From a virus (Duplodnaviria; Caudoviricetes): 58,912 nucleotides of DNA. Under the pieces are notes generated by a model. The model did no database searches and was not told the DNA's origin. It saw only the letters and a program-made list of their open reading frames with translations. The translations under genes and the position numbers were made by a program. Numbering within the stretch: the first letter of the stretch is position 1; every line of letters starts with the position of its first letter. Positions 1 through 58,746 of the stretch are shown one piece after another. The stretch spans positions 1 to 58,912 of the IMG/VR virus record IMGVR_UViG_3300038974_000374; one strand, 5' to 3'.

Positions 1-27
1 AAAACAAACAATTAAATTTTTTAAAAG

Positions 28-1767
28 ATGTTTGACAGCAAAAAGAAAACACTATTTAGCAGAAATACGACATCTGCCCAGCAACCAGCTACTCCAGTTA
101 GCACTATGGTTACTGAGAATCCTTTTTTAAGAGCAGGATTGCAAGAAACTTCCGTTACTTCCGAACTAGGTAATGGGGCTCTTAAGTACACTACAACTGG
201 TTCAGATTTTGTAGATCAATTTGCAAAAGCAACTAACTACAAAAAGCCTCGTTCATACGCAGAGGTTTCCGCTGATATGAGTAATCTTTGGTCTCAAAAT
301 CAAAAATTAACTCTTGCATTGAGTTTTTATTTGCGTATGATTACCCGCGTCGTACAGTTCTTCTCCGGAGGAAAGACTTCGACTACTCAACGTGGTCAAG
401 GTCTTAAACATGAGGGAATTTTCAGAATGATTTGGTTAGCTATAAACGCTCCTGAATCTTTTTGGAAAAACATTACTTTATTTATTTCAGTTGGTTCTTG
501 GAAAGACATTATTACTATGTTGTCTTATGACTTACAGTATAATGGCTGGGAAAATCGTAAGTTGGATTGGAACAAATTTGGTCAATTAATTTTGGCCGGA
601 TTAGAAAATCCAAATACGTCTGAATTATTAAAGAAATACCTTCCTCAGATTAAAACAAATTCACAATGTAAAACTGTTGAAGCTGAAGCTGATAACATGA
701 TTGCAAAATGGATTTGTTCTTTACTCTTTGGATCAAAGGAGAATGAAACTGGGTCTACATACAAAAAGTATCGTAAACTAAAAGCATCAGGTACCGCACA
801 TCAATGGCAACAGTTAATCTCTCAAAATAGATTGATTGAAATCAACTTTGATACAGTACATGGTCGTGCATTAGCACAATTAGTTTCTGGTAAGTTTTTG
901 GCAAACAACAAGCTTGAGGACAAATATGAAGAATGGATTGCTTCCAAACCGATTGCTAAGTTCACTGGTTATGTATATGAACTAATGGCACCTGTGAAAT
1001 CTGGTTATCAAAACAATAACTTGAAAAAGTATCAGAAAGATACCATCAATAAACAGTTCTATGGTCTCATAGAAACTGCTAAGAATGGAATGAATACTGA
1101 TTCTTCTTTAATTGTTGTTGTTGATAGTTCATCTTCAATGACTGCTTCTGTACCTGGAACTAAAGTATCTTCTTATGACATTGCGAAATCAATGGCATTG
1201 TACTTTAGTTACCTATTAAAAGGTACATTTCAAAAAGCTTATATGGAGTTTGCTGACAGTTGTGAAATGCGTTTTTGGAAAGGTTCTACGCCTGTTGAAA
1301 AATTACAGAATGATAGATGCGAAGCTTATGGAAGTACTAACTTTCAATCAGTTGGTATCACATTCGGTAAGATATTAAAATCAGGAGTTCCTGAATCAGA
1401 GTTTCCTACAGGAATACTGTGTATATCTGATTCATGTTTTAATCCTGTTTATAAAAGGGATGGAGAACTACAATCCAATTTCAGCGCGCTAAAAAGCAAT
1501 TTAAGAAAATTTGGCTTTAGTGAAGAGTATGTTGAAAACTTCAAAGTTATTCTTTGGGATATACCTAATTATTATTATGGAGAAGTTACTCAAACAGCTT
1601 TTGAAACTTTCGCCGACGCTCCTAACATGTTTTACATGTCTGGACTTGATGGTTCATCGATTGCGTTTGTACTTGGTACAGAGTATAATCCTGTTGCACC
1701 TAAAACAGCTGAAGAGCTGTTCTTAGCTGCAATGAACCAAGAAGTATTGAATATGCTTGAGGTGTAA
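28..1767 (+). CDS. DUF2828-family protein with C-terminal vWA domain (Ro60/TROVE-like architecture)
   Basis: 579 aa; NGALKYTTTG, RGQGLKHE and GSWKD motifs typical of DUF2828; helical N-terminus; vWA MIDAS-like VVVDSSSSM, STNF and LCISD. Confidence 0.8.
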   Translation: MFDSKKKTLFSRNTTSAQQPATPVSTMVTENPFLRAGLQETSVTSELGNGALKYTTTGSDFVDQFAKATNYKKPRSYAEVSADMSNLWSQNQKLTLALSFYLRMITRVVQFFSGGKTSTTQRGQGLKHEGIFRMIWLAINAPESFWKNITLFISVGSWKDIITMLSYDLQYNGWENRKLDWNKFGQLILAGLENPNTSELLKKYLPQIKTNSQCKTVEAEADNMIAKWICSLLFGSKENETGSTYKKYRKLKASGTAHQWQQLISQNRLIEINFDTVHGRALAQLVSGKFLANNKLEDKYEEWIASKPIAKFTGYVYELMAPVKSGYQNNNLKKYQKDTINKQFYGLIETAKNGMNTDSSLIVVVDSSSSMTASVPGTKVSSYDIAKSMALYFSYLLKGTFQKAYMEFADSCEMRFWKGSTPVEKLQNDRCEAYGSTNFQSVGITFGKILKSGVPESEFPTGILCISDSCFNPVYKRDGELQSNFSALKSNLRKFGFSEEYVENFKVILWDIPNYYYGEVTQTAFETFADAPNMFYMSGLDGSSIAFVLGTEYNPVAPKTAEELFLAAMNQEVLNMLEV

Positions 1768-1776
1768 ATCCTTACT

Positions 1777-1811
1777 TAGGGGACAGATGAAATAAGCTGT
1801 CCTCTATTTTA
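1777..1811 (+). terminator. Rho-independent terminator
   Basis: taggggacag/ctgtcctcta hairpin followed by tttt, just after the DUF2828 stop. Confidence 0.6.
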
Positions 1812-1853
1812 TTAGAAAATCTTTCTATATAAATAATACAACAAAAACAAAAA

Positions 1854-2237
1854 ATGAAAAAATTCTTTATGTTGATGATTTTGGTTACGATAGCAGCTTT
1901 CACCACAGTTAACGCGCAAAGTGTATCTGTTACCGTAAATTCAATCGATTTGAAGTACGAAGAAATTGATGCCGCAAAGTGGTGTCCTCCTGGCAGCGTA
2001 GTTAGCGCAGATTTTTTATCACGAAGTGTTACCGTTATTAAAGATAATGTTGAAACTTTTAGAGCAGTTCTCAAAAATGTCAAAAAAGTTAATGGTTATT
2101 GGACATTTACTGGTGTAGTTAGTGATAAACAAATAAAGAATGCGAAAGTAAGTCTTACTTTTATTAGTGTCAGTAAAGCAAAACTAAAGGTTACTCTCCC
2201 AAGTGGTGAAGTATATCGTCGAACGCTGACGTTATAG
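1854..2237 (+). CDS. Hypothetical secreted protein
   Basis: 127 aa; signal peptide MKKFFMLMILVTIAAFTTVNA. Confidence 0.6.
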   Translation: MKKFFMLMILVTIAAFTTVNAQSVSVTVNSIDLKYEEIDAAKWCPPGSVVSADFLSRSVTVIKDNVETFRAVLKNVKKVNGYWTFTGVVSDKQIKNAKVSLTFISVSKAKLKVTLPSGEVYRRTLTL

Positions 2238-2245
2238 CTTTATCT

Positions 2246-2416
2246 TAGTGGCATACAGCAACTCCTAATTAAGAACAATTTGTAATAGTTTAAACAATTA
2301 GGGACCTAGGCTAAGTCTAGGCAAACTTCAACCTTTTTCTTTATCCCCACGGAATTATTCATCTAGCCACTAGAAAAACTTACGGGTGAATGGAGCCAGG
2401 ATATGAAAAAGGTTGA
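2246..2416 (+). ncRNA. CAGCAA stem RNA 1 (long, pseudoknot-type)
   Basis: tagtggc-atACAGCAA...gccacta-g (2366-2373); 12-bp helix tcaacctttttc 2328-2339 / gaaaaaggttga 2405-2416. Confidence 0.6.
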
Positions 2417-2423
2417 TTTTATA

Positions 2424-2558
2424 AGATGACGAACAGCAAATTAAATAACAATTAGCAATTTTAATGCAGTGGTCGAAGGTTAGAATCCTTCATCTTTAAT
2501 CAGCGTAATAGCAAGAAGAGATTAGCTCAGCTGTATAGAGCACTTAATAAGTCATCTG
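2424..2558 (+). ncRNA. CAGCAA stem RNA 2 containing a circularly permuted tRNA-like module (YrlA/Y-RNA-like)
   Basis: agatgac-gaACAGCAA...gtcatct-g; inside: anticodon-like gca-attttaa-tgc, T arm gaagg-ttagaat-ccttc, acceptor atcttt/agagat, D arm gctc-agctgtata-gagc. Confidence 0.75.
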
Positions 2559-2948
2559 CACCTTTAATAATCAATGATATGACTAAACAAGAATTAGAAC
2601 TTTTAAAAAATATTTCACTATCTTTGAAAAATCCACTAATACAACTTGGGAAAGTGGTAATTTTGAACAATGGGTTGATTATGCCAAAGTTATGCGAACA
2701 GTAATTCGCACTAATTGCATTATGTTAGATACTTTGATTGCAAATTCTAACATATATCCATCAAGTGGTTATCCAGTTATGGAAACTATTTCTACTCCAC
2801 CTACTTTTGAATCGCCCTTAGGTACATCAAAAGAGCCAAAAGATCCAAATGGAGTTGATCCTGTCTCAAAAGATTCATTAAAAACCCCTGTCTGGAAAAA
2901 CGGACAGTGGGAATAACTCAAAACAAACTAATTTAAATAAATAAAATT

Positions 2949-3329
2949 ATGTCTGAAACAAATCAAAATTCAGAAACTCCTGTTCAACAAGGTGCGTTTT
3001 ATGCGTCACTTAAAAGAAACAATCGTGAAATTCGCCAGGACAGAGCGGATGCTATTGGAAGAGCTCTTCAGTTGCGTTATAAACGTAAAATTGAAGACAT
3101 TGATGAAGAAATTTATCAGGCTCAAACTCGTAGAGAAAATGCGTTGGACTTGTCTCCATCTGTTATCGGAAGTCTCAATCCTGCTAGGGATTTTGATGCC
3201 GATCAATTTCTTAACGATGACATGAATACCGGCATTGAATTGCGTAATCTTAGAATCAAATCCAATGTAATTCGCAGTCGTTACAATTTCCTGTTTGGTA
3301 ACACTTACGAAATGTTGGAGGTTGAATAA
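2949..3329 (+). CDS. Hypothetical coiled-coil protein
   Basis: 126 aa ORF, stop overlaps start of vWA gene. Confidence 0.6.
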   Translation: MSETNQNSETPVQQGAFYASLKRNNREIRQDRADAIGRALQLRYKRKIEDIDEEIYQAQTRRENALDLSPSVIGSLNPARDFDADQFLNDDMNTGIELRNLRIKSNVIRSRYNFLFGNTYEMLEVE

Positions 3330-4216
3330 TGGGAGGTGGTGGATATTCAATTCATTCGCGCAATATTCGCGCTAATGCAATGGGTTATGATACTCGATCA
3401 GCTGAAGAAATCTTTTCAAATAGTTTTGATCCAAGTATGAACCCAAAAGGAGTTACTTTGAGAGAATCTCGTGATTCTGAAGAACATCCTCATAGTTTAG
3501 CAATTATGCTTGTACTCGATGTTACTGGGTCAATGGGAAGAATTCCTCTTGAACTTGTAAGAAGAGGATTACCCAAAATGGTGGGAAGACTGATTGAATT
3601 AGGGATTAAAGATCCTCAGATCATGTTTACTGCCATTACTGACCATTTATGTGGTAATATGGCCCCTCTTCAAATTTCACAATTTGAATCGAGTGACGAA
3701 ATGCTTGACCACTGGCTGACCAAAGTTTGGTTAGAAGGTGGAGGTGGTGGAAATGATGGTGAAAGTTATACACTTGCTCATTATTTTGCCGGCAAATATA
3801 CTTCAATTGACTGCTTTGAAAAAGGCAGAGAAAAAGGATTTTTAATCTCCATTGGAGATGATAAACCTCACGCTTCTTATTCTTCTCGTAAATTGGAGGA
3901 ACTTCTCGGAGGAGAACATCCCGCAATGACCAGAGAACAAATGATTGATATGGCGAAAGAAAAATATAATGTTTTTCATATCCATACTGGTGATGAGGCA
4001 AGTAGAGGAGTAATTCGTGATTGGACAAATTTGTTAGGAGAAAACTTCTATCATATCCCTAATCATGAGGAAATTCCTTATAAAATTGCAGAAATTATTG
4101 CTCAACGTGCCCGCAGATATCATACAGAAGTATCTCCGGACTTAAACGAAGTTGAAGACTTCAACAATGGACCAGGTAATTTATCTGCTCCTCAACAAGA
4201 AATTGAAATTCTCTAA
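3329..4216 (+). CDS. vWA domain protein
   Basis: LVLDVTGSMG MIDAS, EGGGGGNDGESY, SIGDD. Confidence 0.8.
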   Translation: MGGGGYSIHSRNIRANAMGYDTRSAEEIFSNSFDPSMNPKGVTLRESRDSEEHPHSLAIMLVLDVTGSMGRIPLELVRRGLPKMVGRLIELGIKDPQIMFTAITDHLCGNMAPLQISQFESSDEMLDHWLTKVWLEGGGGGNDGESYTLAHYFAGKYTSIDCFEKGREKGFLISIGDDKPHASYSSRKLEELLGGEHPAMTREQMIDMAKEKYNVFHIHTGDEASRGVIRDWTNLLGENFYHIPNHEEIPYKIAEIIAQRARRYHTEVSPDLNEVEDFNNGPGNLSAPQQEIEIL

Positions 4217-4346
4217 TAAAAACAACTTTTTTAAAATTTACGATTATGGGTATGACCAACAAAGCAATGAGCTTCGAAGATCTGGAATCTGAAGCCGCAA
4301 TGGAAACAGTAGTAAATACTGAAGTAACAACCAATACTGCTGAATA

Positions 4347-5462
4347 ATGAATCATAAAGCCATAATAGGCTTAGGATTTGGAGATGAGGGCAAAGGGATA
4401 ACAACAAATTTCCTTTGCCTTCACAATCCAAATACATTAGTTGTCCGTTTTTCAGGCGGACAACAAGCCGGGCATACTGTTGTCTTAGATGGCAAACGGC
4501 ATGTTTTTTCAAATTTGGGAAGTGGAACATTGAATCATAATCCCACTTATTGGTCAAAGTATTGTACTTTTGATCCAGTTGGGTTTTATAACGAAGTTCA
4601 AATACTTTTAAAAATGGGAATCACTCCAGTTATTTATATTGACAACAAATGTCCTGTTACAACTCCAATGGATAAAGAAATCAATGGTGAAAAAGATATG
4701 AAGAATGGAACTTGTGGAGTAGGAGTTGGTACAACTCAAGCTCGAGAAGAGAAATTCTTTTCTTTATTGTTTGAAGATTTATTTCATCCATCAGTAGTTG
4801 CAACAAAAATTAAACTTATGCGTGAGTATTATCGGGATTGCGATCAGGAATACATTGATGTATTTTTTTATTGCGTTAACTGGATATACAAAGTATTTGT
4901 TAATTGGGGTGCTCCTTTTTACAGAACAACTGGAGTTCCAAAAGGATTCGAAGATATTGTTTTTGAAAGTTCCCAAGGATTATTACTCGATCAACATTAT
5001 GGATTTTTTCCACATGTAACTCGTTCTAATGTTGGAAGTACTAACATTTTAGAAATGGGTTATGATCCGGAATACTGGTGTGTTACTCGAGCATATCAAA
5101 CAAGACACGGTAATGGTCCAATGACTAATTTATCAATTGATCACAACTTAAAGTTGAATCCATTAGAAACTAATGTCCACAACAAATTTCAAGGAGAATT
5201 TAAAGTATCTTTGTTGGACTTAGATCTTTTAGATTATTCGGTATCGAAAGATCCGTCAATTAGCTCTAAAAGAAAAAACTTGGTTATTACATGTGTCGAT
5301 CAGCTTGAAGATACTCCCAGATACACTCGTAATGGAGAAATTGTAGAATGTAAAGACAAATTTGAATTTATTCAATCTGTTGGTCATATTTTACAATTTG
5401 AGAATATTTATTACAGTGAATCTGAAGAATCTAAAAATATTCAAAAATTTAGTGTAAGATGA
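4347..5462 (+). CDS. purA: Adenylosuccinate synthetase-like protein (PurA family)
   Basis: GLGFGDEGKG, RFSGGQQAGHT, ESSQGLLLDQHYGFFPHVTRS, TRAYQTRHGNGP. Confidence 0.8.
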   Translation: MNHKAIIGLGFGDEGKGITTNFLCLHNPNTLVVRFSGGQQAGHTVVLDGKRHVFSNLGSGTLNHNPTYWSKYCTFDPVGFYNEVQILLKMGITPVIYIDNKCPVTTPMDKEINGEKDMKNGTCGVGVGTTQAREEKFFSLLFEDLFHPSVVATKIKLMREYYRDCDQEYIDVFFYCVNWIYKVFVNWGAPFYRTTGVPKGFEDIVFESSQGLLLDQHYGFFPHVTRSNVGSTNILEMGYDPEYWCVTRAYQTRHGNGPMTNLSIDHNLKLNPLETNVHNKFQGEFKVSLLDLDLLDYSVSKDPSISSKRKNLVITCVDQLEDTPRYTRNGEIVECKDKFEFIQSVGHILQFENIYYSESEESKNIQKFSVR

Positions 5463-5492
5463 TTGGAAAAACAGGAACCATGAAATTCAGAG

Positions 5493-5837
5493 ATGGCTCA
5501 ACGGTCAATGAAGAGAAAAGCTATTAGTATTGCTAATCATTCTCCAGAAAAAATTGTTTTGGGAGTTTATCAAAATTTGATTAATAATCACAACAGTTTT
5601 TGTTCATGTGACTATTGCCAAATTTTAAAACAGTACGTTGCTGAAAAGAAATCATTATCCAGATTTAAGAAGCGTGATTATGAATATTATTATATTACGC
5701 CTCATGAATTAGGAGGTGATTTTGATACTGAGTCTAATTTTTACAATCAGTTGGAAAAAAGAAGATTGCGTATTAAAGAACTTAAAGCAAAAAAAGATGA
5801 ATTGAAAAAACAAGTCATTTCATCGCTAAAAAAATAA
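5493..5837 (+). CDS. Hypothetical protein with CxCxxC motif
   Basis: 114 aa ORF. Confidence 0.5.
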   Translation: MAQRSMKRKAISIANHSPEKIVLGVYQNLINNHNSFCSCDYCQILKQYVAEKKSLSRFKKRDYEYYYITPHELGGDFDTESNFYNQLEKRRLRIKELKAKKDELKKQVISSLKK

Positions 5838-5995
5838 GGTGGATTTCTGCAAATTTAAAAGTTAAAACTACAATTAAATTGGCAAACCCCCGAGGACTAC
5901 TTTCTCATTAGAAATATATTTAATAATCTCTTTGGTAACATCCACCTGTTATAGAAACTAGAGAGTGTAAACATATATGGATTTGAGAAAGTGGT
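5837..5995 (+). ncRNA. CAGCAA stem RNA 3 (long, pseudoknot-type; CTGCAA variant)
   Basis: aggtggat-ttCTGCAA...atccacct-g (5940-5948); 12-bp helix actactttctca 5896-5907 / tgagaaagtggt 5984-5995. Confidence 0.55.
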
Positions 5996-6007
5996 TCTCA
6001 TTTTACA

Positions 6008-6308
6008 AGAGTACATCAGCAAATCAAAAAAGGTTAAAAAATCAATTATGTAAAACTGATAATAGCTGTTCAATTCAGCACGTCTCTATGACGTTAAACG
6101 TACTCTGATAAGGACACTCACAGCAATTTTTAAACAATTGTCTTTGGTTGATAAAAAAAGTGTCCTGATAAGTTTACCAACAGCAACTTAATAAACAATA
6201 ATCTTCTAAATTATGCACGTTATAAAAAGGTAAACTGATAAAGTGAGCAACAGCAAATTAATATATCGTTAAATTTTGTAAATTCAACTTCAATAAAATG
6301 CTCACTTG
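6008..6308 (+). ncRNA. Head-to-tail array of four CAGCAA stem RNAs (6008-6107, 6111-6167, 6171-6237, 6241-6308)
   Basis: Covarying closing stems agagtac/gtactct, aggacact/agtgtcct, agtttacc/ggtaaact, aagtgagca/tgctcactt; each 5' strand followed by CAGCAA; units joined by G-ATA. Confidence 0.75.
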
Positions 6309-6347
6309 CTTCCCAAACAAAAAAATATTAATTATTAAAAACAAAAG

Positions 6348-6584
6348 ATGAAAACAGCAATTTCAATTTTACTATTTGTGATATTAGCATTAATAGTAGG
6401 TGATTTTAAAATCACATTTTCTCCCTTTAGTGTTTCTTTACCAGGATGGATTAAAATAATTGCCTGGACTTGTTTTGTTACAGGAATGGTAATGCTTGAA
6501 GTACATTCTTTCCGACAAGGTCTTGTAAAAGGTGCTGACTTGATGGGGGACCATATTATAAAAGTTATGCAAGAATCTCGATAA
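6348..6584 (+). CDS. Small membrane protein
   Basis: 78 aa, two hydrophobic segments. Confidence 0.5.
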   Translation: MKTAISILLFVILALIVGDFKITFSPFSVSLPGWIKIIAWTCFVTGMVMLEVHSFRQGLVKGADLMGDHIIKVMQESR

Positions 6585-6609
6585 ATGCCTGACTCTACTA
6601 CAGTAGAAG

Positions 6610-6906
6610 ATGCGAAATCTGAGGTCATTGAATAGTGCAAAGCTTGAATACAATCATGATGTCGATAGAGAAACTGTGAGTTGGTCAACCCAAAATGGAG
6701 TCAAAAGACTTATTAAGGATTTGTCTGACTCACATTTAGCTAACATTATTGAATATATATCAAGAAAATCTAATGAAGGAAATGAAGCATTTATCAAATT
6801 TCTCAAGACAGAACAGGCCTATCGAGAGAATAACAATGAATTTGTTGAAGATTATCCTTCTGAAGTAGATCCTGAAGAAGATCTTTCAAAATATTTTAGT
6901 TTTTAA
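6610..6906 (+). CDS. Hypothetical phage protein
   Basis: W-x-T...IKDLSDSHLANII motif common in small phage proteins. Confidence 0.55.
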   Translation: MRNLRSLNSAKLEYNHDVDRETVSWSTQNGVKRLIKDLSDSHLANIIEYISRKSNEGNEAFIKFLKTEQAYRENNNEFVEDYPSEVDPEEDLSKYFSF

Positions 6907-6909
6907 ATC

Positions 6910-7340
6910 GGGCGTGTTTGGTTTTGACAGGTAGTAAAGAAATAATAAGACAGCAGAGGTAGACCACCCTCTATAATCAGAGATCAAAACAATAAATGAC
7001 AAGAAAGTAATTTCTTTTGCTCGTCCAGTTGCTGTAATGGTTGCTGCATAGTGAGCCGAGTTGTCAACTGACTTAGGAACAGAATAGTTGAAAAAATGTC
7101 AGTGCTCGAAGAGTGATTGACCTGGTGGATCACATTACCGTAATTGTGATTGATTTTTCTATTAGATTAAATAGAATGGTGGAGCTGGAGGTATTCTTCA
7201 CTTAAAATGAAGGATAAATTCAAAAAGTTTTTGTAGTTTTGATATAGACCAAAACACCAGAAAAGAAACTGTAAAATCTAAGCTGTATAATCTTATTACG
7301 TATCCTATTTTGGACGGCGGTTCGAATCCGCCCACGTCCA
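6910..7340 (+). ncRNA. ssrA: tmRNA
   Basis: Acceptor GGGCGTG/CACGTCC with G3:U70; 5' ggttttgac; T arm ggcgg-ttcgaat-ccgcc; tag ORF 6998-7051 DKKVISFARPVAVMVAA*. Confidence 0.92.
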
Positions 7341-7380
7341 CAACGATTTTCGAATTTTTTAGTTGTGTAACATTATGCAA

Positions 7381-7411
7381 TCGCTTGCTCGTGAGAGTAG
7401 GCGATTTTTTT
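7381..7411 (+). terminator. Rho-independent terminator after tmRNA
   Basis: tcgcttgctc-gtga-gagtaggcga followed by T7. Confidence 0.8.
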
Positions 7412-7914: not shown

Positions 7915-8321
7915 TTAAAAGATTTCGCATAAAAAGACTATTAAGATATTACTGGGTAAATCTAGTAAAATGGGCTAATTCTAGAAAATATATTTTAGTT
8001 GATGAAAGAGAACAAAGAGGAAAATTAATTTGTTTAAGATTGATTTCGCACCCTAACTCTGAACTCAAAATTTGTCCAGAAACAAATAAAAGATATATTG
8101 TTAATAAAATAGAGAACATTTCAATTATTATAAATACTGAATCAATAGATTTCTTCGATAATCATTTACATACTGTAAAGTTTTGTGAAAAAAATTATCG
8201 TGCTATTATTCAAGTATTTGATAAACATGCTTCTGCCGATAGACAAAAATTAGAAAACAAAATCCGTGTTAATGTCAAACATTCATTTGACGACATGTAC
8301 GATAATTTATTTGAAAAATGA
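7911..8321 (+). CDS. Hypothetical protein
   Basis: 136 aa ORF with ATGA overlaps at both ends. Confidence 0.55.
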   Translation: MIKRFRIKRLLRYYWVNLVKWANSRKYILVDEREQRGKLICLRLISHPNSELKICPETNKRYIVNKIENISIIINTESIDFFDNHLHTVKFCEKNYRAIIQVFDKHASADRQKLENKIRVNVKHSFDDMYDNLFEK

Positions 8322-8761
8322 AAAAAGCAGTAATATTTGATTTGGACAATACTATATTGTATCAAACCAATCGCAATCCATTTAATTGGAGTGATCTTTC
8401 TGGTGATGTAATAATTCCTGAGATGGAACAGATGATAGAATTATTTCTTGAATCTGACTACGCAATTTTGTTTGTTACAGGTAGACCTGAATCGGCAAAA
8501 GAGAATACTCAGAAGTTTTTACTTGAAAAAGATATTCCTTATGATAGACTTTATATGAAACAAGGCAATCCAAAAAAGAAAGCTGTTGTTCATAAAGAAG
8601 CTACTCTCTTGGAAATTCAAAAAGAATTCAATGTAGTATTAGCATTTGAAGATGACGATAAATGTGCAGAAATGTATGTTCGTAATAAAGTTATGACTCT
8701 TATGCCTTTAAACTATAAGATTCCAAAGAAGGGAAATCAAACGATTATTCCTTTTTCTTAG
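8318..8761 (+). CDS. HAD-family phosphatase (polynucleotide kinase 3'-phosphatase, PseT C-terminal-like)
   Basis: IFDLDNT, FVTGRPE, AFEDD. Confidence 0.8.
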   Translation: MKKAVIFDLDNTILYQTNRNPFNWSDLSGDVIIPEMEQMIELFLESDYAILFVTGRPESAKENTQKFLLEKDIPYDRLYMKQGNPKKKAVVHKEATLLEIQKEFNVVLAFEDDDKCAEMYVRNKVMTLMPLNYKIPKKGNQTIIPFS

Positions 8762-8767
8762 GAATTC

Positions 8768-8843
8768 GGTGCATTAGCTCAGTTGGTAGAGCAGGCCTAC
8801 CAATGTGTAGGTATCGTCAGAGGTTCGAGTCCTTTATGCATCA
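8768..8843 (+). tRNA. tRNA-like gene with atypical anticodon arm (identity undetermined)
   Basis: Normal acceptor ggtgcat/atgcatc, D and T arms; anticodon arm gcctac-caatgt-gtaggt has no 7-nt loop. Confidence 0.65.
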
Positions 8844-8990
8844 CAAACAATTAAAATTTATATTTATGAATGATATAGAAAAATATATTATTAAATCTCT
8901 CATAACTAATACAAGGACTGAGAAAGAAATCGGGTTTAACTCTGCGTTAATAACATTGTTAAAAGCAATGGCAGAAGGAATACCGTTACA

Positions 8991-14288: not shown

Positions 14289-14362
14289 GTCCTCATGGTG
14301 AAGTGGTTTAACACGGAAGACTGCAAATCTTCTATTCCTCCGTTCGAATCGGAGTGAGGACT
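14289..14362 (+). tRNA. tRNA-Cys(GCA)
   Basis: Cloverleaf, loop ctGCAaa, U73. Confidence 0.9.
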
Positions 14363-14383
14363 CAAACAATTAAAATTAATAAA

Positions 14384-14839
14384 ATGAATAAATATCACTT
14401 TTTTTGGAAATCTAAACTCTCAAATTGGACTTCTTCTCGATTTATCTACAGAGGATTTAACTACAATTGCGGAGAACAAATGATGATGCATCAAAAAGCT
14501 ATTATGTTTAAAGATTGGGAAACTGCTCTTTTAATTGAACAGTCTACTAATCCTAAAGAAATGAAAGCTCTTGGTCGTAAAGTAAAGAATTTTGATACAA
14601 ATGTTTGGGATGAAATTAAATATGACTTAGTAAAAGCTGGGTTATATTGTAGATTCACTCAGGATAAATCAGCAAAAGCTGAATTATTAGCTCATGCTGG
14701 GCAGATTTTTGTTGAAGCATCTCCTTATGATAGAATTTGGGGAATTGGATATACTGCTCAAGACGCAATGCAAAATATTGACAATTGGGGAGAAAACCTT
14801 TTAGGTAAAATATTAACAGAAATCAGTAATGAAATTTAG
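14384..14839 (+). CDS. NADAR (YbiA-like) family protein
   Basis: LSNW, EQMMMHQKA, KALGRKVKNFD, VEASPYDRIWGIG, GENLLGKIL. Confidence 0.9.
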   Translation: MNKYHFFWKSKLSNWTSSRFIYRGFNYNCGEQMMMHQKAIMFKDWETALLIEQSTNPKEMKALGRKVKNFDTNVWDEIKYDLVKAGLYCRFTQDKSAKAELLAHAGQIFVEASPYDRIWGIGYTAQDAMQNIDNWGENLLGKILTEISNEI

Positions 14840-17480: not shown

Positions 17481-17555
17481 GCGCTCTTAGCTCAGTTGGC
17501 TTAGAGCACGTGACTTTTAATCACGGGGTCCTGGGTTCGAATCTCAGAGGGCGCA
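17481..17555 (+). tRNA. tRNA-Lys(TTT)
   Basis: Cloverleaf, loop ctTTTaa. Confidence 0.9.
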
Positions 17556-17979
17556 CAATGACAATAAAGTCATTATTAAAAAATGAGGAATTATGAAAAA
17601 AGTATTTTTGTAGATTTTTAATTGAGGGTCTCCATAATAATTTATTACTTAAGTATGTATTACAAAATAGTAGATAAAAAATTAATAAATTATATATTAC
17701 AATATTATGGAAACTTTTAAACAAGAAATCAAAAAATTAGCAGAAGAACAAAGAAATCTTAAAAATTTAAGAAAATCAGTAAATTATCAAGGGTAAGAAC
17801 AATGGAACCATGGCAAGCACAAATGAAACATTATTTTAATGGAAAACAACTTAGAATTATGTATGCCGCATATGGTATAATTAGAGGTAAATCTTATTCT
17901 CAAATTGAAAATCATTATTCTGAAGAAATGCACCCTCTTAAACAATTTGATAATCAAATTCAAAAATTGGTTGAAAAAT

Positions 17980-18411: not shown

Positions 18412-18484
18412 ACTCTATTAGCTCAGTGGGAGAGCAGCAGATTCTAACTCCGTGTTGTCACAGGTTCGATCCCTGTATAGGGTA
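18412..18484 (+). tRNA. Amber suppressor tRNA (anticodon CTA)
   Basis: actctat/atagggt acceptor, D arm gctc/gagc, anticodon arm gcaga-ttCTAac-tccgt (one mismatch), T arm acagg-ttcgatc-cctgt. Confidence 0.8.
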
Positions 18485-18705
18485 CAAATTATAAAATAAT
18501 ATCCGAAATTGATCGGTAAGACAGGTAAGAGGGGAACCCAATGTCGACTTGTAATTAGGTAATGAGTCCGAATATCCTTTAATAGGTTTAGTCCCGTGGA
18601 TAACATGCGTGTAAATGTCCCTTAATTATTTTATAATTTACTGGAAGTAATCCGGCTGGATGAGGGGATGTTTGTTTATAAATTATAATAAAATAATTTA
18701 ATTCT

Positions 18706-20146: not shown

Positions 20147-20606
20147 TAAAATGAATCGAAAAGACTATAAAAGAATAATCAACAAACGAAAGAAGATTTG
20201 GGATACTTTTGAATGGTGGTATCGACAAGAACCTAATCGTTTATATAAAAACCATTCTATAAAATGTGGATGCGCAATGTGTAGATCAATGACTTATTTT
20301 AAAAGAAAAGAAAGAAGAGATCGTAGACATGAATTTAAAATAGAGTTAAATACAATTAAATTTGATTGGTAATGCAAATTGTTAAAGGTAATTTTGAAGA
20401 GTTGCAATATGATAAGTTGCTTCCTTATTTAAATATTGGTGAGATTTGCATTCGTGATTTGTCAAATAATAACTTATATGGAAGATCTTATAAATATTCT
20501 AATTTTGGAATTTGTAATATTTATGATAGACCATTGGGTATTATTTATGAAGATGAAATTAAAGATTCAAAGCATCACATCCATTTTAAATTTTAAAATA
20601 AAAAAA

Positions 20607-21026
20607 ATGTATAAACAAGTAATTGTAATGCGCAAAGATTTAAATATGTGCAAAGGTAAAATGATTGCTCAAGGAGCTCATGCTTCTATTGGAGCATTTT
20701 TAAAATTTGGAGTGAATAAAACATTTGAGTTGTTGGAACCTTTTGAAACAAATCAATCGGGTATAGAATTTCATATTGAAGCATTGAAAGATGGTTCTTT
20801 ATATAACTGGTTTTATTCAGGGCAAACTAAAATTACCGTAGGTGTTGAATCTGAAGAAGAATTAATGAAAATTTATAATAAAATTCCTGATTTTATTCCA
20901 ACTTATTTAGTTACAGATGCAGGTAATACCGAATTTAAAGGAGTTCCTACTGTAACATGTTTTGCATTTGGTCCAATAGATTCAGAATATGCAGATAAAT
21001 TTACAGGACATTTAAAGTTATTATAA
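20607..21026 (+). CDS. pth2: Peptidyl-tRNA hydrolase Pth2
   Basis: KQVIVMRKDLNMCKGKMIAQGAHAS, DAGNTEF, FGP, TGHLKLL. Confidence 0.9.
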   Translation: MYKQVIVMRKDLNMCKGKMIAQGAHASIGAFLKFGVNKTFELLEPFETNQSGIEFHIEALKDGSLYNWFYSGQTKITVGVESEEELMKIYNKIPDFIPTYLVTDAGNTEFKGVPTVTCFAFGPIDSEYADKFTGHLKLL

Positions 21027-22628: not shown

Positions 22629-23015
22629 ATGAAAAAAGTACTTTTATGGTTAGATGATAGTCGTGATCCTAATACAGATGACTGGTTAAATTTTAGTCCA
22701 ATTGGAAAAAATTGTGAAGTTGTTTGGGTTAAAAGTTATGCAGCTTTTACTCATTGGATTATTGTAAATGGATTACCAGATGCCATATGCTTTGATCATG
22801 ATTTAGGATTTACAAATGAATATTATATAGAGAACGATATTGAATCTCCTGATCCAGAACGCACTGGTTACGATTGTGCAAAATGGTTAGTAAAATACTG
22901 TTTATTACACAATAAAGTATTACCTTTGTATTCTGTTCAATCAGCAAATATAGTAGGCAAGGTAAATATAATTAGTTATCTGGAAAATTTTAAAAAATCT
23001 CAAAATGACAATTAA
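22629..23015 (+). CDS. Cyclic-phosphate-processing receiver domain protein
   Basis: LWLDDSRDP, ICFDHDLG, TGYDCAKWL, VQSAN. Confidence 0.8.
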   Translation: MKKVLLWLDDSRDPNTDDWLNFSPIGKNCEVVWVKSYAAFTHWIIVNGLPDAICFDHDLGFTNEYYIENDIESPDPERTGYDCAKWLVKYCLLHNKVLPLYSVQSANIVGKVNIISYLENFKKSQNDN

Positions 23016-25623: not shown

Positions 25624-26694
25624 TTATAAACACTTTTTAAATAAATATAATATGCAAACAAAAAATTTAACATTGAAAGACTTCAACAAAGTACTTGTTT
25701 CGTACTTTTATGAAACTCCTGACGAAATTGTCGCAGACGTAGAATGGGAAGAAACCGAAGAAGGACTTGTTCCAGTTCCAAAATTGAGAAAAGTAGGAGG
25801 TAAGAAACGTGGCGTGGTAGTTGCTATCGGCCCAAATATTCTTGGATGGTCTTTGTGTAATACCAAAGAACATGACCTCGAAATTATTCCTGGAGTTGAA
25901 ATTCCTATTCCCGGTGATGTATTTGACAAAGAAAAAGGTTTGTCAATTGCTTTGATGCGCGCTGATATTGCTTCAACACTGTCATCAAAAGAAAGAAAAA
26001 GCTTTTACCAAAAAGTTCCTTTTACTCTTTCTAATTTGTTTGAATCAGTGGACGAACGTTCTGAAAGATACTTCACTTACGAAGACGAAGAATTCATGGA
26101 AGATTAAGTATGGTAATCATCAAGGATAAAGAATTTGAAATGGTCCAGGTAAAATCTGGGCCATTCTTTAATTTAAGCCTACTTACTACTGTAAATGCAG
26201 GTAAGGAAAATGAGCGATCAGAAATGAAACTTTATGGATACAGTTTACCTTTTGAAGCATGTATGCAACATATAGTTGGAATCAAAATGGCATCAAAAGA
26301 AGGAACTTATACTGTAAAAGAGTATATTGACAAGTACGCTGAGGCTGTTAATGAAGTATCTAAATTGATACAATTTATCGATAAAGTTGAAGAACCTAAA
26401 GAAGAAGTAGATGAATAATATAAGTTGGAGCAAAACTATTGGAAACTGGGCAAAAAATGATCAAAATTTTGATCCAAATGCTCCTGTTGCTGAATCAAAA
26501 GAACGAATTGTAATGTCCCCAGAGGATTTGCTAAATGCTAAAAATTCTTTATTAGAAAAATGTGATGAACTTATTGTTATGTCCTCGACATTATATGATT
26601 GTTCTTCAAGTAAAGAATTGTACGATACAATAGTAACACTTAATTCAGCAAAAAGATCTTTGGATCGTATTTTTGTTAAAGAAAGTAAAAAATA

Positions 26695-27049
26695 ATGATA
26701 AAGGACGAAATAATTCAATATAGAAATAGTAACCCTAGTTATAGAACTTTACTTGGTACGGTTATTGGAGAATTAGATAGAATTTCTAAAACTCCTACTG
26801 ATGAACAAGTGGTTCAAGTAATTAAAAAAAATGATGGAAGCTAATAAAGAAATAAAATCTAATGAAGCATTAGAAGAAAATTTTATTTTGAGTAAATTTC
26901 TTCCAAAACAACTTTCAGAAAGTCAAATCATTGCTATTCTGGAAGAACAAAAATTTCAATCAATTAAAGATTGTATGAGTTTCTTTAAAGATACTTATGC
27001 AGGTTTATATGATGGAAAAGTAGTAAGCAAACTATTTAACAATAAATAA
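26695..27049 (+). CDS. GatB/YqeY domain protein (apparent +1 A-run frameshift near 26830)
   Basis: RTLLGTVIGELDR...TDEQVVQVIKK / ENFILSKFLPKQLSE...YDGKVVS. Confidence 0.7.
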
Positions 27050-57002: not shown

Positions 57003-57435
57003 TCCAAAAATATATTTAATTGATGAAATTCGATTAAAAAATTTATTAAAAGAAAGTAGATTGTTAGCCGCATTATTAAATGGAGGAGTTGACAATTGGG
57101 AATGGTATGACGAATCAATTAATCAGTTTGAAATTAATACTGGTGAAGATATTGATAACATATCAACAGAGTTAGAAACATTTGATTTATATAAATAATG
57201 GATACTGCTTACTTAAATAAAATAAGTTATCATTTTTCACAAGAAGGTAATACCAGTGGTACAACTTCTGAAGATGAAGAATTGATTGTTGAAGTTGAAG
57301 GACCAGTTGGTTCTATAGAAAGAGAAGGAGGGTTTTTAGTAATTAGATCTTCTACTGGATGGAGCATAAATGATGCTGATGAATTAATGGAAATACTTAA
57401 CCTTGTTCAAAAAGGAGTACCTCTTTCAAAACAAA

Positions 57436-58746
57436 ATGAAAATAAATAAACCAAAAAATGAAAACTATGCAGCAATAGTTGTACAAATTAAAACAATTGT
57501 TCCACTTGAAAATTGTGATAATGTACATGCTGCTATTATACTTGGTAATCAAGTAATTGTAGATAAATCTGTGAAAGTTGGAGATATTGGATTGTATTTT
57601 CCTTTAGAAACTCAACTTTCACAACAATACCTTTCTAACAATAATCTTTATAGAAAACCTGAACTTAATGTTAATCCAGAAAATAAAGGATATTTTGAAG
57701 AAAATGGTAGAATTAGATGTGTAAAATTTAGGGGAAATAAATCTGAGGGTTTATTTATGCCTATTGAATCTATATGTTTTATATCAAATCCTCCAGTTGA
57801 ATTGAATTTAAATGATACATTTGACGAATTAAATGGAGTACCTATTTGTACAAAATATGTAGTAAAACAAAATAAAACTCCCGGTCAGCCTGGGACAGGT
57901 AAAAAAGGAAAAGGTAAAATAGCAAGAGAAAACAAGTTAATCGAAAATCAATTTAGATTTCACGATGATACTTCCATGCTATACAAAAACTTACATAAAA
58001 TTAAACCTAATGATTTAATTTCTGTTACTTACAAAATGCATGGTACATCTGGTATTTCATCTAAAGTATTATGCAAAAGACCACTTAAATGGTATGAAAA
58101 ATTTCTTATCAAACTTGGAGTAAAAGTAGTTAATACTGAGTATGACTATATTTATTCTTCTCGTAAAGTAATCAAAAATCCTGATTTAAATCCAAATGCT
58201 CAACATTATTATAATGAAGATATTTGGGGAATTGCTCATAATGAAGTTAAAGATTTTCTGCAAGCGGGAATGACTTTATATTATGAGATTGTTGGATACT
58301 TGCCTTCTGGTGCTGAAATCCAGAAAGGATATGATTATGGATGTAAACCAAAAGAACATGAAATTAGAATATATAGAATTACTTATACTAACCCTGAAGG
58401 AAAAGTATTTGAATTCAGTGCTAAACAAGTTCAAGATTGGTGTCATTATAAAGGTTTAAAAGCAGTTCCTCAATTGTATTATGGATTTGCCAAAGATTTG
58501 GGTAAACACGCTAATTTATTACATCTTGATAAACCTTGGGATTCTGAAAAATTCTTAGATCTTATAAAAACAAAATACAATGAAAAAGATTGTTATATTT
58601 GTAAAAACAAGGTTCCTGAAGAGGGATGTGTTATTCGAGTAGAACAAGAAAATTTTGAAGCGTTTAAACAAAAGTCTAACCGATTCTATGAATTAGAAAC
58701 AAAACAGCTTGATAAAGGCGAATCTAATATAGAAGACGAAAATTAA
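57436..58746 (+). CDS. RNA ligase (Rnl2/DRB0094-like, with N-terminal tRNA-binding OB fold)
   Basis: YKMHGTS, YEIVG, VPQLY, EGCVIR, FKQKS; N-terminal VKFRGNKSEG. Confidence 0.8.
   Translation: MKINKPKNENYAAIVVQIKTIVPLENCDNVHAAIILGNQVIVDKSVKVGDIGLYFPLETQLSQQYLSNNNLYRKPELNVNPENKGYFEENGRIRCVKFRGNKSEGLFMPIESICFISNPPVELNLNDTFDELNGVPICTKYVVKQNKTPGQPGTGKKGKGKIARENKLIENQFRFHDDTSMLYKNLHKIKPNDLISVTYKMHGTSGISSKVLCKRPLKWYEKFLIKLGVKVVNTEYDYIYSSRKVIKNPDLNPNAQHYYNEDIWGIAHNEVKDFLQAGMTLYYEIVGYLPSGAEIQKGYDYGCKPKEHEIRIYRITYTNPEGKVFEFSAKQVQDWCHYKGLKAVPQLYYGFAKDLGKHANLLHLDKPWDSEKFLDLIKTKYNEKDCYICKNKVPEEGCVIRVEQENFEAFKQKSNRFYELETKQLDKGESNIEDEN

Follow-up and report, generated by a model that had tools for sequence, protein, structure and literature searches.

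The DNA considered here is a stretch of 58,912 nucleotides from a virus of the Caudoviricetes (Duplodnaviria; positions 1 to 58,912 of IMG/VR record IMGVR_UViG_3300038974_000374), which we refer to as the window, and its positions 2424-2557 on the + strand are best explained as the gene of a non-coding RNA of about 134 nt that would consist of two modules, a handle and a cargo. The handle is a 7-bp terminal stem together with a single-stranded CAGCAA motif, and the cargo is a complete tRNA cloverleaf whose elements stand in rotated order. The gene of a Ro60-like protein ends 657 nt upstream of this unit on the same strand. Judged by its sequence features, the unit is most readily placed as a variant among the Y RNA-like tRNA mimics, distinct from the YrlA RNAs (Rfam RF02553; PMC4201824).

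A tRNA cloverleaf in rotated order

Read directly from the 5' end, the cloverleaf starts with the anticodon hairpin, which is followed by the variable loop, the T arm, an acceptor stem that a loop seals, U8-A9 and the D arm, and all of the elements of a class I tRNA can be found in it. The parts of the unit are as follows.

2424-2430, + strand: 5' strand of the handle stem, AGATGAC, pairing with 2551-2557
2431-2433, + strand: spacer GAA (direct reading)
2434-2439, + strand: CAGCAA motif, single-stranded, 3 nt past the 5' handle strand; presumed protein-recognition motif
2440-2454, + strand: A/U-rich linker of 15 nt (direct reading)
2455-2467, + strand: anticodon hairpin GCA-AUUUUAA-UGC (tRNA positions 29-41); the arm is classed as complete, with two trans and three cis pairs
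2459, 2460-2462 and 2463, + strand: U33, anticodon UUU and A37; the anticodon is read as ttt by ARAGORN once the unit is rotated
2468-2469, + strand: positions 42-43 (AG), the upper end of the anticodon stem, whose trans partners are C27 and U28 (2543-2544)
2470-2474, + strand: variable loop UGGUC, 5 nt (positions 44-48; direct reading)
2475-2491, + strand: T arm GAAGG-UUAGAAU-CCUUC, with A at position 56 where C is usual
2492-2498 and 2516-2522, + strand: acceptor stem, 3' strand ATCTTTA and 5' strand AAGAGAT, six pairs and an A-A mismatch
2499-2515, + strand: loop of 17 nt sealing the acceptor stem (direct reading)
2523-2524, + strand: U8-A9 (TA; direct reading)
2525-2541, + strand: D arm, GCTC-AGCTGTATA-GAGC as DNA and GCUC-AGCUGUAUA-GAGC as RNA (direct reading and the alignment of relatives)
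2542 and 2543-2544, + strand: A26, then C27 and U28, the chain leaving the cloverleaf past position 28
2545-2550, + strand: linker TAATAA (direct reading)
2551-2557, + strand: GUCAUCU, the 3' strand that closes the handle stem; the next base, G2558, matches the family consensus of a 3' strand ending in CU and then G

The local hairpin supplies pairs 29-41, 30-40 and 31-39 together with the 7-nt loop AUUUUAA, while C27 and U28 pair with G43 (2469) and A42 (2468), and the two sets together make up a canonical 5-bp anticodon stem. The new chain ends thus lie between tRNA positions 28 and 29, and the linkers there run to the handle. A first-pass annotation of this DNA had proposed a permuted but complete cloverleaf with a sealed acceptor end, and direct reading bears this out in every part, with the coordinates given for the T arm and the D arm proving exact. 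It had also placed the opening of the chain between the D and anticodon arms; the chain is indeed opened near the anticodon arm, but inside the 5' strand of the anticodon stem (28/29) and not exactly at the boundary between the two arms.

In its native order the unit is called neither by ARAGORN nor, at gathering score, by the Rfam tRNA model (RF00005), which gives a partial match of 20.3 bits; it lacks the contiguous cloverleaf with an open acceptor end that characterises that family. When the unit is rotated in silico, ARAGORN calls it tRNA-Lys(ttt). The label describes the anticodon only, because the body is no closer to the tRNA-Lys of the window than to other tRNAs and the triplets of its relatives vary: rotated identity to the 20 tRNAs of the window ranges from 0.50 to 0.68, with tRNA-Lys at 0.66 in joint third place with two others, and 16 different anticodon triplets occur among the relatives. 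The Lys-specific body of the first-pass annotation was rejected on these grounds.

A search of the region with blastn against 50,697 phage records gave no match. Folding of the single sequence predicts the outer stem, the T arm, the acceptor hairpin and the D arm, with a z-score of -1.30 that is not significant, and support for the structure of the unit is comparative.

Conservation of the permuted cloverleaf

A first set of 34 distinct units was collected with a script that demanded a T arm, a closed acceptor stem and a D arm behind a CAGCAA-type motif. Because this script itself demands pairing, a covariance model (R1) was built from 29 of the 34 units with the window left out. The model matches window positions 2424-2557 over model positions 1-124, its full length (73.4 bits, E 3.6e-12), which confirms the earlier suggestion of a tRNA-like body inside a CAGCAA RNA. 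Across 83 sources (721 kb), R1 gives 52 matches at E <= 1e-5, all on the + strand, and at least 16 of these had been missed by the script.

Among the 49 distinct sequences obtained in this way, 95.7% of cells are paired (59.2% in shuffled controls) and the covariation score is 0.941, against 0.234 after shuffling and 0.11-0.20 when the partners are slid. Pairing reaches 98.8% of cells in the handle stem and 94.3% in the acceptor stem, and in both helices all seven pairs vary on both sides. The helix formed in trans between positions 27-28 and 42-43, for which the script made no selection, is paired in 80-85% of the sequences with six pair types for each pair. Covariation is found in every helix of the structure, and the D and T arms, whose loss in homologs would have spoken against the proposal of the first-pass annotation, are conserved.

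The anticodon arm was assessed from the five bases before the variable loop, for pairing in trans with the bases past the D arm and for pairing in cis across a 7-nt loop. A complete arm, with a full 5-bp stem and a 7-nt loop, is present in 24/49 relatives, in keeping with the earlier view that the arm is kept here as it is not in YrlA. All 24 carry U33 and 23 of them a purine at position 37, whereas 1000 shuffles of the linkers gave a mean of 3.86 complete arms with a maximum of 11, and 0.66 arms with both U33 and the purine. A further 16 of the 49 have an all-trans stem of 4 or 5 bp without an anticodon loop, which is the YrlA design, and the remainder have an unclear arm (7/49) or are too short (2/49). 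Among the complete-arm units the break follows position 28 in 12, position 29 in 9 and position 26 in 3. Their 24 loops carry 16 triplets (CAT three times; TTT, TGA, TTC, TCT, TAT and GTC twice each; others), and 18/18 units of the first set are called as tRNAs by ARAGORN after rotation in silico.

C56 occurs together with GG in the D loop in 46/49 relatives, and the window alone has A56 with G-U in place of G-G. This would fit a compensated U19:A56 pair replacing G19:C56, and hence a folded L-shape, although the hint is only suggestive because it comes from a single event.

The Ro60-like neighbour gene

28-1767, + strand: gene of a 579-aa Ro60-like protein (DUF2828 and DUF7788), with the vWA MIDAS motif DxSxS at residues 366-370
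26-75, + strand: handle-like element AGATGTT-TGA-CAGCAA...GACATCT lying over the start codon of this gene (R1 20 bits, E 0.25, weak)

With the window protein alone, DUF7788 and DUF2828 are matched weakly in Pfam, while across 37 aligned relatives DUF7788 is found in 36 and DUF2828 in 23. Pfam TROVE is absent both from the families reported for the window protein and from the 17 families reported for the 37 relatives. The protein matches phrog_850, 'RNA-binding protein', at 2.2e-29. An AlphaFold2 model made from the 37-sequence alignment (pLDDT 89.1, pTM 0.89) is predicted to follow the Ro60/TROVE plan, with a ring of helical repeats and a vWA domain bearing the MIDAS motif, whose DxSxS residues are invariant among the relatives. 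When this model was compared with the PDB using Foldseek, the top 13 matches were all Ro60, Rsr or TROVE structures (best 1yvr, E 2.5e-8; 501-597 aligned columns, TM 0.32-0.58, 11-15% identity) and included the Ro60 of the Thermus phage phiLo. Sequence searches of the PDB with the window protein, by phmmer and by profile, gave no Ro60 match. Because the fold search returns Ro60 structures and the sequence searches none, we call it, on the strength of its predicted structure, a very divergent Ro60-like protein.

A search for DUF2828/DUF7788 proteins gave at least 2643 relatives, and literature searches gave no functional paper for DUF2828, DUF7788, PF11443 or the Dictyostelium protein DDB_G0281243. 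The Ro60-likeness of such phage proteins is not wholly new. Relatives are named 'RNA-binding protein' in RefSeq and 'Ro-like RNA binding protein' in mycobacteriophage records, and a study of Listeria phages reports an HHpred match to Rsr and the presence of the Ro-like protein CKA15_055 in purified virions of phage CKA15 (PMC12282133). In a preprint on the Felixounavirus Bas63, gp130 is described as Ro60-like by structure and as encoded directly upstream of tRNA genes, some of which, as annotated, are guessed to be its Y RNAs (PMC11482910).

Handle-like elements such as that at 26-75 are found at 18 of 66 distinct gene starts, a set that includes some starts of other genes, against about 4.2 expected. 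The position of the element over the start codon suggests that the protein may repress its own translation, which would make the element a possible autoregulatory site.

The CAGCAA handle family and its arrays

The loci used to define the wider family were IMG/VR relatives of the window protein (7 and then 80 loci, 40-62% identity), and they were searched for units with a stem of at least 7 bp starting 9-11 nt ahead of CAGCAA. Repeated units lie past the relatives of the Ro60-like gene, on the strand of the gene, and share a common plan. A 5' strand of 7-9 nt, usually starting with AG or AA, is followed by 1-3 spacer bases, CAGCAA, an A/U-rich run, a variable middle and the complementary 3' strand, which ends in CU and is followed by GAUAA. 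In 81 sources (704 kb) there are 321 units on the + strand and 28 on the - strand, where shuffles give 11-22, and 58/81 sources fetched through the protein have at least 3 units. The next unit begins exactly 4 nt past the previous one in 96/240 neighbouring pairs.

The 285 distinct units, from which the motif consensus was drawn, comprise 160 short ones (<= 80 nt) without a T arm, 59 with a T arm and 66 longer ones without it; C11, G13, C14 and A15 of the unit are invariant (alignment A3). The family defined by the handle is thus broad and lies outside Rfam, and its members are encoded singly or in head-to-tail arrays in tRNA-rich phages. In one CAGCAA unit (L008 2935-3050, identical DNA to L001) the enclosed tRNA is unpermuted, with an Rfam tRNA match of 53.4 bits at 2961-3033, and its ends are joined to the handle by short linkers, which shows that tRNA-like cargo in normal order can be carried as well. 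The literature on Y RNA and YrlA, phage Ro60/TROVE, permuted tRNAs and Dictyostelium Class I RNAs, taken outside the subscription journals, gave no description of the CAGCAA handle or its units.

The window itself holds further candidates, listed here.

2245-2373, + strand: candidate CAGCAA unit 1, no tRNA-like cargo, stem TTAGTGGC/GCCACTAG, motif at 2256; found by script only and held with lower confidence
6008-6307, + strand: second array, made up of four CAGCAA units that lack tRNA-like cargo (R1 matches of 18-30 bits)
6008-6106, 6111-6166, 6171-6236 and 6241-6307, + strand: the four units of the second array, with TGATAAG-type junctions

Candidate unit 1 gives no R1 match at E <= 1. A long inverted repeat at 2329-2415 (AACCTTTTTCTTTATCC ... 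GGATATGAAAAAGGTT) covers its 3' part, with GATTTTAT next to it.

Linkage to the gene and reach into cultured phages

A reverse scan of IMG/VR, which started from the RNA and used the junction pattern CTGATAAG-N7-9-CAGCAAA, gave at least 117 stretches, of which 80 were read. Among these 80 are 16 loci with at least 3 units, and 7 of the 16 have the gene in the fetched flank and one more has it 1.2 kb beyond. The other 64 loci have fewer than 3 units and are mostly chance matches, and 2/64 hold the gene.

Searches with tblastn extended the window protein to Leptolyngbya phage Lbo-JY46 (44.7% identity over the full length), to Bacillus phages and, at about 23-25% identity, to phages of Escherichia, Salmonella, Shigella and Citrobacter such as the Suspvirus phiSUSP1, whose type of protein matches 710 cultured-phage records. 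Protein and RNA co-occur down to 23% protein identity. In Lbo-JY46 the gene is immediately followed by a tandem run of five CAGCAA units. In Escherichia phage phiSUSP1 three short units and one permuted-tRNA unit (R1 59 bits; L089 5413-5533) lie among tRNA genes, and the anticodon arm of the permuted unit is wholly local (TTTCT-CTGGTAA-AGAAA). A permuted unit of the same type is present in the Felixounavirus Escherichia phage HY02 (R1 63.1 bits); in this stretch (L209, NC_028872.1 19760-29172) the RefSeq table is without tRNA genes and Rfam finds about 20, with CAGCAA units among them.

Mycobacterium phage Archie has a permuted unit directly past its Ro-like gene, with a CAGCAA handle and the hairpin CCA-CUGUUAA-UGG (60.6 bits; L208 4007-4126). 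This element of cluster-L-type mycobacteriophages is annotated as tRNA-Asn in Wilder and Gardann and is unannotated in the other phages listed. In Listeria phage AG20 the gene is closely preceded by three short units. The three most-transcribed regions reported for CKA15 (26,236-26,727; PMC12282133) were considered as CAGCAA units and rejected, since in that genome the units fall between 25,214 and 25,614. The corresponding AG20 sequence (L207 2447-2938) holds no CAGCAA unit and no annotated gene, and the most-transcribed CKA15 stretch may be a different structured RNA.

Comparison with YrlA and other known RNAs

The likeness to YrlA is considerable. YrlA, too, is a small RNA whose gene neighbours one of the Ro60 type; its ends pair in a stem, a short conserved motif stands close to the 5' end, and its tRNA mimic runs, like that of the window unit, from the T arm through the sealed acceptor stem to the D arm (PMC4201824). 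The similar permutation seen in the first-pass annotation is borne out, but the match to the YrlA model, which is the best sub-threshold one here (30.1 bits, E 1.5e-4, at 2451-2574), does not reach the gathering score of 69. The relatives of the window unit score 33-42 bits on the same model, no match at gathering score was found in 17 related loci (136 kb), and Archie, HY02 and AG20 have no Rfam YrlA match at E <= 0.1.

The differences are equally clear. YrlA has the motif GNCGAAN0-1G (PMC4201824) where the window unit has CAGCAA, and the YrlA motif occurs in the first 40 nt of 0/49 members, the window having a partial GACGAA that overlaps the stem. In YrlA the stem leads straight to the Ro site, whereas the window unit keeps a 5-bp anticodon stem and a 7-nt loop. 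The protein partner here would be a DUF2828/DUF7788 protein and not a Pfam TROVE protein, and the CAGCAA handle is also found in arrays with empty, T-arm-only and other cargos. Chen et al. list 22 phages with YrlA in their Table S2 (PMC4201824), namely Bacillus phage G, CcrColossus and mycobacteriophages of the Bxz1 type with a TROVE protein of 552 aa, and phiSUSP1, HY02, Archie, Lbo-JY46 and AG20 are all absent from that table. From its sequence, the element would work like a YrlA-type Y RNA but departs from YrlA in three defining features, namely the model score, the motif and the absence of an anticodon loop.

The Dictyostelium Class I RNAs (RF01414; PMC7919456) offer a second comparison. 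Their ends are joined by a short terminal stem (6 bp), beside whose 5' strand is an unpaired 11-nt motif ending in CAGCAA, an arrangement that the phage units share. They are about 60 nt long with an A/U-rich variable middle, an AAG-like start and a CUG-like end (CUGU), and their genes are clustered (PMC7919456). In three Rfam E-value scans, RF01414 was the only family besides tRNA, tmRNA and YrlA that repeatedly matched the units. The short phage units score 24-39 bits on it, and even the best of them, at 39.3 bits in Lbo-JY46 (E 3.7e-4), stays under the 41.5 bits set as gathering score; the score of the window unit is 15.8 bits (E 4.8). Examples of such short units are L088 5734-5791 and window 6111-6307. 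The Class I RNAs differ in being eukaryotic, with their own DUSE promoter about 60 nt upstream and a reported confinement to dictyostelids; their known direct binder is an RRM protein, and they are described without any tRNA-like cargo (PMC7919456). DDB_G0281243, one of four proteins pulled down with Class I RNA, is reported with its function unassigned (bioRxiv 10.1101/2020.04.05.026054). On the protein side, the best 120 matches of a profile search were all close relatives, either unnamed or called 'hypothetical protein', and the Atlas gave viral clusters only. The resemblance between the handles may reflect homology or convergence on a short motif.

The Thermus phage phiLo provides a further case of a phage protein with the Ro60 fold and adjoining small RNAs, Yrl1 and Yrl2 (PMC12135203; 9KOP, 9L5Y), and 9kop and 9l5y are among the top Foldseek matches of the window protein model, with 14-15% identity in the structural alignment. 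Its RNAs differ in that they were picked by a CGAA motif and a stem-bulge-stem shape, and the term 'tRNA-like' is absent from the main text of the report (PMC12135203).

Genome context and expression

Together with more than 20 tRNAs, including a tRNA-Lys(UUU) at 17481-17556, and a tmRNA, the window encodes several proteins of RNA metabolism. Further genes at 4347-5462, 8318-8758, 14354-14836, 20436-21023, 22629-23012 and 57403-58743 give an adenylosuccinate synthetase-like protein, a PNKP-type HAD phosphatase, NADAR, a PTH2 peptidyl-tRNA hydrolase, cREC (cyclic-phosphate processing receiver) and an RNA ligase, and these genes together are an RNA-repair and translation-rescue toolkit. The tmRNA lies at 6910-7343 (Rfam 83.4 bits), downstream of the second CAGCAA array. 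A tmRNA is also found past the Ro60-like gene in L014, L016 and L025, so that the order Ro-like gene, CAGCAA array, tmRNA and tRNAs is conserved. ARAGORN finds a tRNA with a four-base anticodon (aatg) and an amber-reading tRNA with the anticodon CTA, labelled Pyl, at 8768-8844 and 18412-18485, which the phage may use for suppression or frameshifting.

DNA of the phage is present in wastewater, bioreactor and aquatic runs of 12 studies. Expression was considered from contigs of four RNA-library runs placed on window 1-7400, which are blind to starts, ends and levels and may derive from DNA. These contigs cover the Ro60-like gene, and the long contigs of three runs (X15, X16 and X17, from two studies) end at 2346-2348, inside candidate unit 1 and just past the 5' arm of the 2329-2415 inverted repeat.

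Proposed role and alternatives

The fold of the unit, its family and the link to the gene are established by the comparisons above. By analogy with the Y RNAs, the RNA and the Ro60-like protein probably form a Y RNA-type particle in which the tRNA-shaped module engages factors that recognise tRNAs. The handle would be the docking site of the ring-shaped protein, a role that we infer because it occupies the place of the Ro motif of YrlA, near the 5' end and beside the terminal stem. The cargo would fold into the L-shape of a tRNA and display an authentic anticodon loop (AUUUUAA, with UUU), and with its acceptor end sealed the primary transcript cannot be aminoacylated. The first-pass annotation had gone further in denying the RNA any chargeable end, which holds for the primary transcript only: YrlA is reported to carry tRNA-type modifications and to be recognised by tRNA enzymes, and that of M. 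smegmatis to be cut by RNase P and given CCA (PMC4201824). Within the particle, the tRNA module might meet processing, modification or repair enzymes, or nucleases directed at tRNA. The identity of its molecular target is speculative; the intact anticodon loop might serve as a sensor, lure anticodon nucleases or offer a site to anticodon-loop enzymes. The setting would be one of conflict between phage and host over the integrity of tRNAs, which the tRNA-repair-type neighbours fit. In a review of jumbo phages, ROT/TROVE proteins that have a tRNA-like partner are described as a platform for RNA repair (PMC7824862).

Several observations weigh against this account or against the evidence on which it is built. 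The pairing percentages of the first set are partly a matter of construction, as the script demanded paired T, acceptor and D stems, and the 49-sequence alignment was fitted to the model, which favours structure; given the size of the effect and the slid controls, fitting is unlikely to be the source of the signal. The other 8 array loci of the reverse scan lack the gene in the fetched flank, and a search of the contigs of four of them (7-64% complete) gave none. In X15-X17 the bins from 2471 to 2964 are uncovered, and X18, a library of doubtful type, covers them thinly, a result that is neutral on the expression of the unit. Promoter and terminator scans near the unit gave nothing above shuffles, and the sole terminator-like match was the T arm itself. 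Lastly, Bas63 gp130 is placed in the family of the window protein by description and position only.

Of the alternatives, the one that survives best, though itself somewhat unlikely, is that the mimic, with or without the Ro60-like protein, titrates or reports host anticodon nucleases while its sealed end keeps it out of translation. PrrC, for example, cleaves tRNA-Lys(UUU). The retention of an anticodon loop with the tRNA signature in 24 relatives speaks for such a decoy or sensor, as does the presence in the phage of a PNKP phosphatase domain, an RNA ligase, cREC and its own tRNA-Lys(UUU). So does the report that the Ro60-like gene of Bas63, in the same genomic position, counters the defence system Ppl, but Ppl, with an ATPase and a PHP domain, is proposed by the authors to degrade DNA and not tRNA (PMC11482910). 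Moreover, 16 of the 49 relatives lack any anticodon loop, so the loop is not essential to the family, and the spread of the 24 loops over 16 triplets points to no single nuclease target. A decoy can coexist with the particle, since an anticodon nuclease would simply supply the identity of the tRNA-recognising factor.

A more far-reaching proposal, which we regard as unlikely, is that of a second Ro/Y-RNA branch, in which the DUF2828/DUF7788 proteins would be Ro60 paralogues served by RNAs with a stem and CAGCAA, the phage arrays would display tRNA shapes, some of them unchargeable and with a genuine anticodon loop, to bait or sense tRNA-directed host defences, and the Dictyostelium Class I RNAs would be eukaryotic members. 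If it were true, DDB_G0281243 or another dictyostelid protein would be a Ro paralogue of the DUF2828 type.

Permuted tRNA genes of the red-alga type also have the 3' half ahead of the 5' half and natural ends joined by an intervening sequence, and they are processed into normal, chargeable tRNAs. The window unit might be a precursor, its closing loop being opened by RNase P, 3' trimming and CCA addition to give a chargeable two-piece tRNA bearing the handle, or else giving a normal tRNA after religation of the ends, as in those genes. In favour of this, the closing loop is long (17 nt), an A stands next to the acceptor 3' strand, the anticodon is UUU and the phage encodes an RNA ligase. We nevertheless find a precursor very unlikely: the closing loop is only 3-4 nt in 7/34 parsed units, too short to accommodate a discriminator base and CCA, CCA is not encoded, pair 1:72 is an A-A mismatch, and the phage already has a normal tRNA-Lys(UUU). 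In contrast to those genes, the unit is broken within the anticodon stem, and a conserved handle goes with the break.

That the unit is a functionless remnant of a degenerate or rearranged tRNA gene, fallen by chance into a spacer of a phage with more than 20 tRNA genes, would suit its non-significant single-sequence fold (z -1.30) but is so improbable that it can be set aside, given that the architecture and the handle recur in 52 matches, all on the strand of the gene, that compensatory changes occur in every helix and that phages infecting E. coli, Mycobacterium and a cyanobacterium also have the element.

Implications for phage Ro60-like proteins and tRNA mimicry

The Y RNA-type particle, which remains our preferred reading, would provide a very common phage protein family of unassigned function, DUF2828/DUF7788, with a presumed RNA partner that is defined by sequence. 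It would also make Y-type tRNA mimicry broader than YrlA, with one handle that may be empty or bear a T arm, a YrlA-like body or an entire cloverleaf including the anticodon loop. On the side of annotation, the mycobacteriophage copy listed as tRNA-Asn in Wilder and Gardann would need to be corrected. With members in phages that grow on E. coli K-12 and on M. smegmatis, binding, processing and a role against host defences become directly testable.

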